Shown here: piece by piece, positions 51,401 through 53,189 of the stretch | How positions within the stretch are numbered: the stretch's first letter is position 1 | Layout: each line of letters begins with the position of its first letter | Assembly (NCBI GenBank): GCA_951406725.2 | Contig: OX597814.1 | Location: forward strand, 26,474,001-26,538,000 | DNA length: 64,000 nt | Direction: 5' to 3' | Source of the DNA: Octopus vulgaris | Taxonomy: Eukaryota | The notes under the pieces: model-generated | Told to the model about the DNA's origin: nothing | What the model saw: the letters and a program-made list of their open reading frames with translations, nothing else | Databases searched by the model: none | Position numbers and translations under genes: made by a program

Positions 51401-51534
51401 ACAAATAGTAGGACATGTGTGACAACAAGCCAGTTGAATCACCCGCTGAAGATTAATATTGTCATAATATTATGTAAATGACTGAGTAGTAGAATAGTTT
51501 CTATTGTAGACTTTCTGTGAGAGTTAATATATCA

Positions 51535-51906
51535 TGGTTGTATACTGTCAACATAACATGACAGTCCTGTAAAGAGAATTACACCACCGCTATTTAGCCC
51601 TGGGAAGCATCGACACTTCCTGTCGGCATTGACACATTTCCTGTGTCCTTATATTTGCAAAGGGGAGGCAAGCACCCCCACCAGCTAGGACTAGCAACCT
51701 GAAGACATGCATGTTTCTGGGTCTTGCCCGTCATCAGTCCAGCATAGCAAGTCCTGCTAGTTGAGATACCTGCCAAGCCCTCACAAATATAAGGACACAG
51801 GAAATGTGTCAAAGCTGACAGGAAGCGTCGATGCTTCCTAGGGCTAAATAGCATAGGTGTAATTCCCTTTACGGGACTGTCATGTTATGTTGACAGTATA
51901 CAACCA
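51535..51906. mobile_element. 372-bp palindromic element with a hammerhead ribozyme in its loop
   Basis: Arms 51535-51657 and 51784-51906 (123 bp) differ at 9 positions by manual count. Looser complementarity continues inward to ~51697/51745. Confidence 0.92.
51699..51742 (-). ncRNA. Type I hammerhead ribozyme
   Basis: Minus strand: CTGGA-CTGATGA-C-GGG-CAAGA-CCC-A-GAAAC-ATGCAT-GTC-TTCAG. Stem I is CTGGA/TTCAG, the core CUGAUGA+GAAA is intact, stem II is GGG/CCC, helix III is the palindrome ACATGCATGT, and the triplet is GUC. Confidence 0.85.
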
Positions 51907-53189
51907 CTCTATTGCTCCACCACTGCTCATGTCTCTTTGAGACATTTAGAAATTCAATATTTCTAATTAATATATCATGTTCAAAGTGAAATGTTAGAAA
52001 CAGATTAGCAATAGTGACATGGGTGGAGGTGTGGTAACTGGTTTAATACTAGATAAAGATTGGTGTGAACATCTTATTTCTGTGTCCTCAGTAAATGTTC
52101 GTTTACATCAGTACATTATGATATTGCTGTTACCCATGTTCTCATAAAAGGTATGATGATTCATCTACCATTATCACTGAATGCAATAAGGGGTATTGGA
52201 GTGATATCACATTAGATGTATCATGACATTGGGAAATGGATAATGTTAGTGAAAACGATCTGTGGTAACTGTGATATGGGATAATTACTTTGGCTGCTGG
52301 TCATACTTTAGCCAGGACTCAAATTATATTGCTAAATAATTATCCTTATCATCACCATTACCACCCTCATTGCCATCATCATCATCAGTAGCAACAGCAT
52401 TCGTATTTCATGCTTTGGTATTGTTGTTGTGGTTTAGTGCCTTAGGGTTATGCTGATATTTTTACCTCAAACTAAGAAAGAAATTTGTCAGCAATTTCAA
52501 TTATCTGTTTACTTTTGATGGTATTATTGTTAAAACTTATTCTAGATTGGCTTCATAAGATTTGTACATTCTGTTTTTGGGGGGTTTTGCCATTTTCTTC
52601 CTTCTATGGTATGTGGACTCATCATCATTCACTGAAAGGGACCAAGTGTCATGTTGATTAACCTGCAGTTGAAACATTAATGATACAAAAGAAAACAGTG
52701 AAGATAAACAATAAAATAATGATGTCGAAGAAGATGGAAAAATAGAGAGTAACTGAAGAGGAAGAGAGAAGGAAATGGGTGATGGATTATGTTAATAGAA
52801 TGAATGCTAGAACAAACCCCTGCCATATAAACACACATTAACACTCTCAATGTATGCACACAAGGAATCTAGTTTTACCACATTAATTATTTAAATTTAT
52901 TTCTATTTTTTAAAGGAATCAATAAATCATTGAAAACCACACAGCAAATTTTAAAATGTTTGTGATTGCATCAATGTTTTTTATACAGATATTTATATAC
53001 ATAAAACAAAGTGTCACACATAGAAAGATATAATGATGAAGCAAGGAATTTATGTTTTAAAATATTTATACCATGTTTTGAATAAATTGTTTGCCTGTTG
53101 AAAGTTAAGTACAACTAAATTGTTTAGCAATAAGATGGGTTTTACTTTTTATCTTTTGGTTTGGAGGAAGGGGCTGAGGCTATTGCCTT

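Follow-up and report, generated by a model that had tools for sequence, protein, structure and literature searches.

The hammerhead-bearing palindrome in the window (the whole 64,000-nt stretch of Octopus vulgaris DNA that was analysed) is an insertion of two 5′-truncated copies of a 354-nt repeat monomer, placed head to head within the monomer's own hairpin. The pair was likely retrotransposed by the enzyme of a Penelope-like element (PLE), a reading given a probability of roughly 0.85. The insert spans positions 51536–51966 and is bracketed by a 13-nt direct repeat. Monomer positions (M) are numbered along an intact natural copy of 354 nt (L034:1574–1927), against which the insert resolved into M38–293 on the minus strand and approximately M171–354 on the plus strand, joined via an ambiguous overlap of 9 nt. 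The features are collected in Table 1.

Table 1. Features of the insert and its flanks; positions are those of the window.
Feature	Position	Strand	Basis
Target-site duplication, left copy, 13 nt, last bases overlapping the element end	51524..51536	+	direct repeat
5′-truncated monomer copy M38–M293 with the hammerhead, stopping at the short 3′ end	51536..51791	-	91% to L034:1574-1927
Native long imperfect hairpin of the monomer, M38–M180, ribozyme at its tip	51650..51791	-	z = -5.3, 0/200 shuffles
Type I hammerhead	51699..51742	-	motif match; family covariation; family model 80 bits (by construction)
Helix I and core	51738-42 with 51699-703; core 51731-37	-	hammerhead parts
Helix II, with C/A mismatch at 51730/51718	51727-29 with 51719-21	-	hammerhead parts
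Self-complementary helix III segment, 10 nt	51705..51714	-	predicted duplex -13.3 kcal/mol
Head-to-head junction in the M38–47/M171–180 microhomology, 9 nt ambiguous	51784..51791	.	segment alignment
Second 5′-truncated monomer copy, about M171–M354, inverted relative to the first	51784..51966	+	alignment to monomer
One-sided 60-nt tail M294–M354, overlooked in the sequence-only reading	51907..51966	+	family sequence
Target-site duplication, right copy	51967..51979	+	direct repeat

The sequence-only reading of this stretch had described two 123-bp arms of about 93% complementarity, which was borne out: 114 of 123 nt are complementary (92.7%), or 86% over 151 nt, and the palindrome has a predicted fold z-score of −26, with none of 100 shuffled sequences equally stable. 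The mini-hairpins that it noted within the arms are present. It had ended the element at 51906, which is too early, as family sequence continues to 51966 on the right side only and leaves a tail of 60 nt on one arm. The weaker pairing that it saw further in does exist, but is the monomer's native hairpin M38–M180, and the apex loop, taken to be unique sequence, is part of that same hairpin. A plain monomer is predicted to adopt this fold. The copy had also been called young. Its two segments differ by 5.4% and 4.5% from the family majority, where the median of 140 segments is 5.4%, and 7 of its 17 CpGs are kept, with 3 of 6 in each arm over M180–290, the family median there being 5 of 6. The arms differ from each other at 9 of 111 positions, the ordinary rate of decay in the family. 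The window copy is of median age within its family, not young.

The minus-strand type I hammerhead was found exactly as first written, with the core elements CUGAnGA, GAAA and UH, helices I–III and an open helix I, and with the predicted cut between 51704 and 51703; the plus strand of the element lacks a hammerhead core. The C/A at the base of helix II, previously remarked on as an oddity, is present and is the norm for the family. Rfam scans returned no hammerhead match at E ≤ 10, only low-complexity noise. The core motif occurs in 93 of 102 family rows, in which a few loci are counted twice. Covariation was measured on an alignment of 90 of these rows (A1; 84 distinct), from which 12 rows comprising duplicates, second arms and part-deleted copies (L008, L036, L101) had been dropped. 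Over 12 pairs, 94.5% of the cells were paired, and there were 39 double changes against 9.0 in shuffles, a number reached by none of 500 shuffles in a test inflated by the relatedness of the copies. Sliding the register lowered pairing to 17–46%, and two of the five covariation measures were not above the shuffles (42/500 and 202/500). The variants of helix III across the family remain palindromic, some being shorter. Judged from this alignment, every whole 354-nt monomer of the family typically carries the ribozyme, and its helices covary, which answers in the affirmative a question posed by the sequence-only reading; it lies inside the repeated unit, not in the unique loop of a fold-back as had been supposed.

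Self-cleavage by the hammerhead is a prediction. Nearest-neighbour folding favours an inactive alternative, which is calculated to be more stable than the hammerhead fold by 3.5 kcal/mol for the palindromic transcript and by 4.4 kcal/mol for the monomer. The self-complementarity of helix III is predicted to allow a double-hammerhead dimer, whose predicted energy of −25.7 lies just under that of two separate monomers (−23.8) and above that of the best misfolded dimer (−34.1).

The genome (2.8 Gb, 227 contigs) was searched for the family, the first look giving 2504 and 2822 candidates, 40 of each being scored. The family unit is a non-palindromic, non-coding monomer of 354 nt, with tandems that join M354 to M1, and the copies take the form of singles, partial tandems and head-to-head pairs. 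Bias from a palindromic query was avoided by sampling all 48 exact matches to a 34-nt stretch of the ribozyme, which gave 21 single copies, 6 tandems, 19 copies called inverted (L177 and L186 among them are probably self-matches of internal hairpins) and 2 direct copies with an ORF1 insert. The ribozyme sits at the apex of a fold-back in five of the 48 (L148, L149, L167, L180 and L181). Joins of M354 to M1 are common and two tandem ribozymes were found at L065 and L089 only; no arrays beyond about 2.1 units were seen among the copies examined, which differs from many retrozymes and counts against the retrozyme/Penelope reading. Only 5 of 258 segments start at M118–132. The cleavage site thus shows no excess of 5′ ends, and the insertions are not simple cut-to-cut monomers, a form that was considered and rejected. 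The upstream flanks of seven copies starting at M1–10 had nothing in common at the junction. None of the data sets that contain the repeat is recorded as RNA; four runs of assembled contigs, taken by guess to be RNA, cover the repeat, such contigs being blind to ends, strand and circles. The family is new, of a known kind, and may already be catalogued, Repbase and Dfam lying outside the comparison.

The marks of Penelope-type insertion were examined over 258 unique segments at 195 loci. The 42 inverted junctions are all head to head, with none tail to tail, and fall at many positions. Free 3′ ends form two clusters that hold 141 of 181, with 78 at M349–354 and 63 at M291–305. Duplications of at least 9 nt flank 12 of the 16 inverted copies with non-microsatellite flanks, compared with 7 of 600 in a random-pair control with wider slack, and the lengths of all 19 duplications found are 9–14. 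Direct copies with plain flanks show a duplication in only 7 of 42, which counts against the Penelope reading. Microsatellite flanks accompany 63 of 121 insertions versus 618 of 3100 random pairs (20%). The family shows partial tandems, an inverted 5′-truncated head-to-head copy and an optional one-sided tail, together with a variable duplication of about 8–14 bp at AT-rich or microsatellite targets that is weak in direct copies. Duplications and tandems, which the sequence-only reading had proposed looking for, were both found, as the 13-bp duplication at the window insert and as the partial tandems of the family.

A family of this genome with intact RT and GIY-YIG was used as an in-genome control, and an optional tail of about 30 nt was observed in 17 of its 30 copies. 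At L199 the inverted arm carries the tail and the direct arm does not, the same arrangement as in the window. The PLE family at L199 and L246–L275 is very young, with 100% protein identity in 76 of 76 scored hits, and includes several head-to-head pairs and insertion at (TA)n.

Partial tandems with an inverted 5′-truncated copy are described for PLEs in the covered passages of Craig 2021 (10.1101/2021.04.23.441226) and Arkhipova 2013 (PMC3846280), as are head-to-head junctions at palindromes, a tail at one end and duplications of 8–10 bp. The part of Frangieh 2024 (PMC11167929) that was covered reports a PLE protein that nicks and extends both strands, two internal start sites on the RNA with a spacing equal to the tail, and insertion in vitro for which ribozyme cleavage is unnecessary, the last counting against the present reading. 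In the proposed mechanism a GIY-YIG endonuclease would nick both target strands about 13 nt apart, and reverse transcription would be primed at each nick from an internal site of the RNA, either M354 or approximately M293–305, the tail corresponding to the gap between these two initiation sites. Both cDNAs would extend toward the 5′ end of the RNA and be joined where they are complementary, at the native hairpin base M38–47/M171–180. As a by-product, one ribozyme would be left at the apex of an extended palindrome. Normally the ribozyme would serve to cut tandem or read-through monomer transcripts, probably as a dimer via the palindromic helix III, as in animal retrozymes.

The same family and enzyme could also have given the inversion through self-priming of one cDNA that folded back, perhaps copied from an antisense template as proposed in the covered part of Arkhipova 2013 (PMC3846280), or through a later flip of the loop between the arms. 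This is the less probable course, although several observations suit it: both arms of an insertion have private variants in common, many of the junctions keep register inside the native hairpin, and the 5′ part of the monomer has a TATA-like palindrome readable both ways. Over 19 insertions the arms of one insertion differ by 7.4%, compared with 10.6% between insertions, and have 3.8 times more private variants in common, which speaks for the main reading as well; the own partner arm is the closest in only 9 of the 19, which counts against the main reading, and tandem units follow the same trend more weakly (8.0% versus 9.6%, 24 pairs). Fold-back of a single sense-templated cDNA would, however, place the tail on the ribozyme-bearing arm. 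In the window copy and 7 more of 15 palindromic copies, the arm without the ribozyme is the one that carries the tail (the remainder having it on the ribozyme arm in 5, on neither arm in 1, with 1 ambiguous), so that the window insert is not a simple fold-back of this type, and many junctions are out of register or lie between tandem arms. The family statistics, with both tail orientations, arms of one lineage and a hot spot in the hairpin, bear on the origin of inverted Penelope insertions. At L042:1259–2116 an inverted insertion has arms identical over 111 nt, with 8 shared private variants and a broken ribozyme core; it may be a recent insertion of a diverged template or the product of gene conversion.

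As one of two possibilities, the sequence-only reading had suggested a MITE-like family. A palindromic family mobile at the DNA level and carrying the ribozyme in its loop would suit the long inverted arms and the recurrence of the window junction at L001, L002, L004 and roughly L020. The unit is instead non-palindromic with asymmetric ends, the junctions are variable, and duplications range over 9–14 bp; neither TIRs directly inside a short constant duplication nor a homogeneous family with fixed ends was found, and the 13-bp duplication in the window lies outside a one-sided tail. The four copies with the same junction differ in their ends and in the orientation and side of the tail, their nearest relatives are non-palindromic copies, and the other three rank 24, 60 and 73 of 84 by relatedness to the window copy. 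The apex form therefore arose repeatedly, and the ribozyme-sampled copies contain only the five examples given above. Transposition as a MITE is extremely improbable, and a literature search for hammerheads with MITEs gave nothing relevant. The window insert is a clean case of Penelope-type insertion making a MITE look-alike, and as such a trap for annotation. The other suggestion of the sequence-only reading, an integrated copy of a rod-shaped retrozyme RNA, fared no better, the monomer being predicted to fold as one long hairpin with short branches, and arms of 123 bp occurring only in inverted insertions.

The apex arrangement might alternatively be functional, its transcript being a long dsRNA hairpin able to cut itself within the loop and act as a source for small-RNA silencing. 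The predicted hairpin is very stable, the hammerhead fold is within the 3.5 kcal/mol of the minimum given above, and the arrangement recurs independently. This recurrence is accounted for by the complementarity within the native hairpin, however, and the decay of the arms is that of the family at large, making such a function very unlikely. A loop-nicking hairpin transcript is possible, and the architecture itself is explained as a by-product of insertion.

The monomer could also be a terminal repeat shed by some larger element, either the ORF1-bearing unit of 2 kb or an autonomous PLE that has gone unseen. At many loci M1–85 and M64–354 flank an ORF1 body, and in the part of Li 2026 (10.64898/2026.07.22.740005) that was covered retrozymes are derived from pLTRs. 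The ORF1 body is nevertheless accompanied by a 9–20-nt duplication of local monomer sequence that differs by subfamily, is also found 5′-truncated at the same site (L101) and in tandem with the duplication between units (L102, L112), which points to insertion of the body into the monomer; monomers also join M354 to M1 without coding sequence. Origin as a shed repeat is considered improbable.

The search for an autonomous element carrying the monomer, which the sequence-only reading had proposed in the form of longer copies to look for, found none in the loci covered. BLASTN gave no hit in 30 of 6136 GIY-YIG candidates, a small sample, and none of 4 longer PLE loci matched. Nor did the ribozyme covariance model, run over 31 sources, reveal a link to an autonomous PLE. 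Its one match beside a PLE, at L136, was rejected as a partner, being a separate tandem of a sister family within a microsatellite. Sister hammerhead repeats of about 360 nt with a U3–A8 core were found at L276 (approximately 1940–2530), L231, L232 and L243; they have the same 3′-terminal hairpin as the monomer family with little similarity in the body, and occur as a partial tandem in a microsatellite. An abundant two-ORF PLE (L196–L198), in which a long ORF precedes a 781-codon RT + GIY-YIG frame, is present in many near-identical copies. Its terminal repeat contains a hammerhead-like motif with a U3–A8 core and a short palindromic helix III, as in some variants of the monomer family.

The sequence-only reading was right to link the element to Penelope termini and animal retrozymes. 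The animal non-LTR retrozymes, in the sections of the sources covered, have a similar non-coding unit of about 350 nt (350–390 in mussel) and co-occurring autonomous PLEs (PMC7229834; 10.64898/2026.07.22.740005), and also a type I hammerhead with palindromic helix III and head-to-tail repeats, the axolotl HHR_Amex2 having a comparably weak helix II base (PMC7229834). The octopus family differs in occurring mostly as singles, partial tandems and inverted pairs, two whole ribozyme units being rare. With a non-coding unit in the range of 150–450 nt that carries a type I hammerhead, it is a probable member of this group, which it resembles in unit size and ribozyme. Li 2026 (bioRxiv 10.64898/2026.07.22.740005), in the part covered, derives the animal non-LTR retrozymes from PLE terminal repeats and gives the connection as untested outside vertebrates; here retrozyme-type units are tied to PLE insertion marks in an invertebrate.

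The inverted-pLTR insertions of endonuclease-bearing PLEs, as described in the covered parts of three papers (PMC3846280; 10.1101/2021.04.23.441226; PMC11167929), share with the window insert the partial tandems, the inverted 5′-truncated copy, the junction at a palindrome, the one-sided tail with two initiation sites, an AC-rich short end, duplications of 8–14 bp and a microsatellite bias. The monomer differs in having no ORF and a tail of 50–60 nt against the published 30–40, and both arms in the window are so short that the insert as a whole amounts to one palindrome, its apex occupied by one ribozyme. According to the portion of Cervera 2014 (PMC4209133) covered, the hammerheads found in PLE terminal repeats are type I with a palindromic helix III and an extra unpaired base after A9, as here, and include opposite-strand paired ribozymes and a U3–A8 variant, the latter likewise present in the sister families and the two-ORF PLE of this genome. 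Helix II has 3–4 bp in the monomer and helix III can form 3 bp with a tetraloop, placing this hammerhead closer to those of canonical retrozymes than to the minimal ones. The word 'ribozyme' is absent from the covered passages of a recent octopus repeat annotation.

The ORF1 body is a 1.68-kb ORF1-only LINE-like retroelement (L091:476–2155; also L092–L095, L098–L117 and L203–L245), with a zinc knuckle (PF00098) below the cut-off and a ZCCHC3-like assignment by Atlas at 0.88–0.92. It is inserted at M64–85 with subfamily-specific duplications of 9–20 nt and in 5′-truncated and tandem forms, other subfamilies forming tandem arrays or lying within other repeats. Of 44 ends from protein-selected loci (18 of these loci being hand-picked), 12 have a hammerhead core 21–40 nt beyond the element, as do 16 of the 25 ends from monomer-linked loci; the corresponding figure for window controls is 6 of 5000. 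The ribozyme model adds three more, at L231, L232 and L243. A span of 5.7 kb at L200 was considered as a full LINE and proved to be nested fragments. The covered part of Kojima 2015 (PMC4494074) describes Tx1 inserted into Tx1D, and Tx1-Mar and SINEU-3 into Mariner-N4. Like these Tx1-clade elements, the ORF1-only element would use a fixed site in another repeat, with duplications of 15–20 nt in the published cases and tandems separated by them; it differs in targeting sequence on the 5′ side of a hammerhead, which it does in several diverged repeat families, and in having ORF1 only, without RT, so that it is likened by insertion habit and not by clade. A literature search joining hammerhead and Tx1 gave nothing relevant.

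A head-to-head pair at L165:1378–1760 (= L279; G000:C10, approximately 102.70 Mb) has arms of M69–125 each, which end at the predicted cut site of the monomer and are fused to a second AT-rich repeat family, joined from its own predicted cut site with microhomology absent. In terms of predicted cleavage products, the 5′ product of the monomer's hammerhead is linked to the 3′ product of the other family's. The ends of the insert are the short and long 3′ ends of the second family, for which there are 1687 candidates and a hammerhead-like core directly upstream of the cut site in 6 of 11 copies. A search for a second chimera with a 20-nt pattern, allowing one mismatch, picked up nothing beyond the L165 arms themselves and a single chance match, and a literature search for cross-family ribozyme chimeras gave nothing relevant. 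The simplest reading of this one locus would be cleavage and cross-ligation in vivo followed by retrotransposition, although an untemplated switch at both sites by chance may also have produced it.

We consider it slightly better than an even chance that the hammerhead cuts in vivo with its ends religated across families, L165 being the fossil, and that an ORF1-only parasite is aimed at ribozyme repeats, landing 20–40 nt upstream of the hammerhead in several diverged families and afterwards being carried along with them. Cleavage and ligation of PLE-type hammerheads in vivo are assumed and so far poorly shown: the covered part of Cervera 2014 (PMC4209133) is without in vivo evidence for either, and in that of Frangieh 2024 (PMC11167929) reads ending at the cut site are absent. 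The L165 chimera, if true, would give evidence from genome sequence that retrozymes pass through a cut-and-ligate step in their cycle, and ligated chimeras of its kind can be counted in any genome; the ORF1-only element, if this reading holds, would be a parasite targeting ribozyme repeats. Both are of more interest than the window palindrome. A TATA-like palindrome lies at M33–41 (within M28–M70), and the start of the L165 arms at M69, together with the ORF1 element at M64–85, would fit a transcription start near M65–70.
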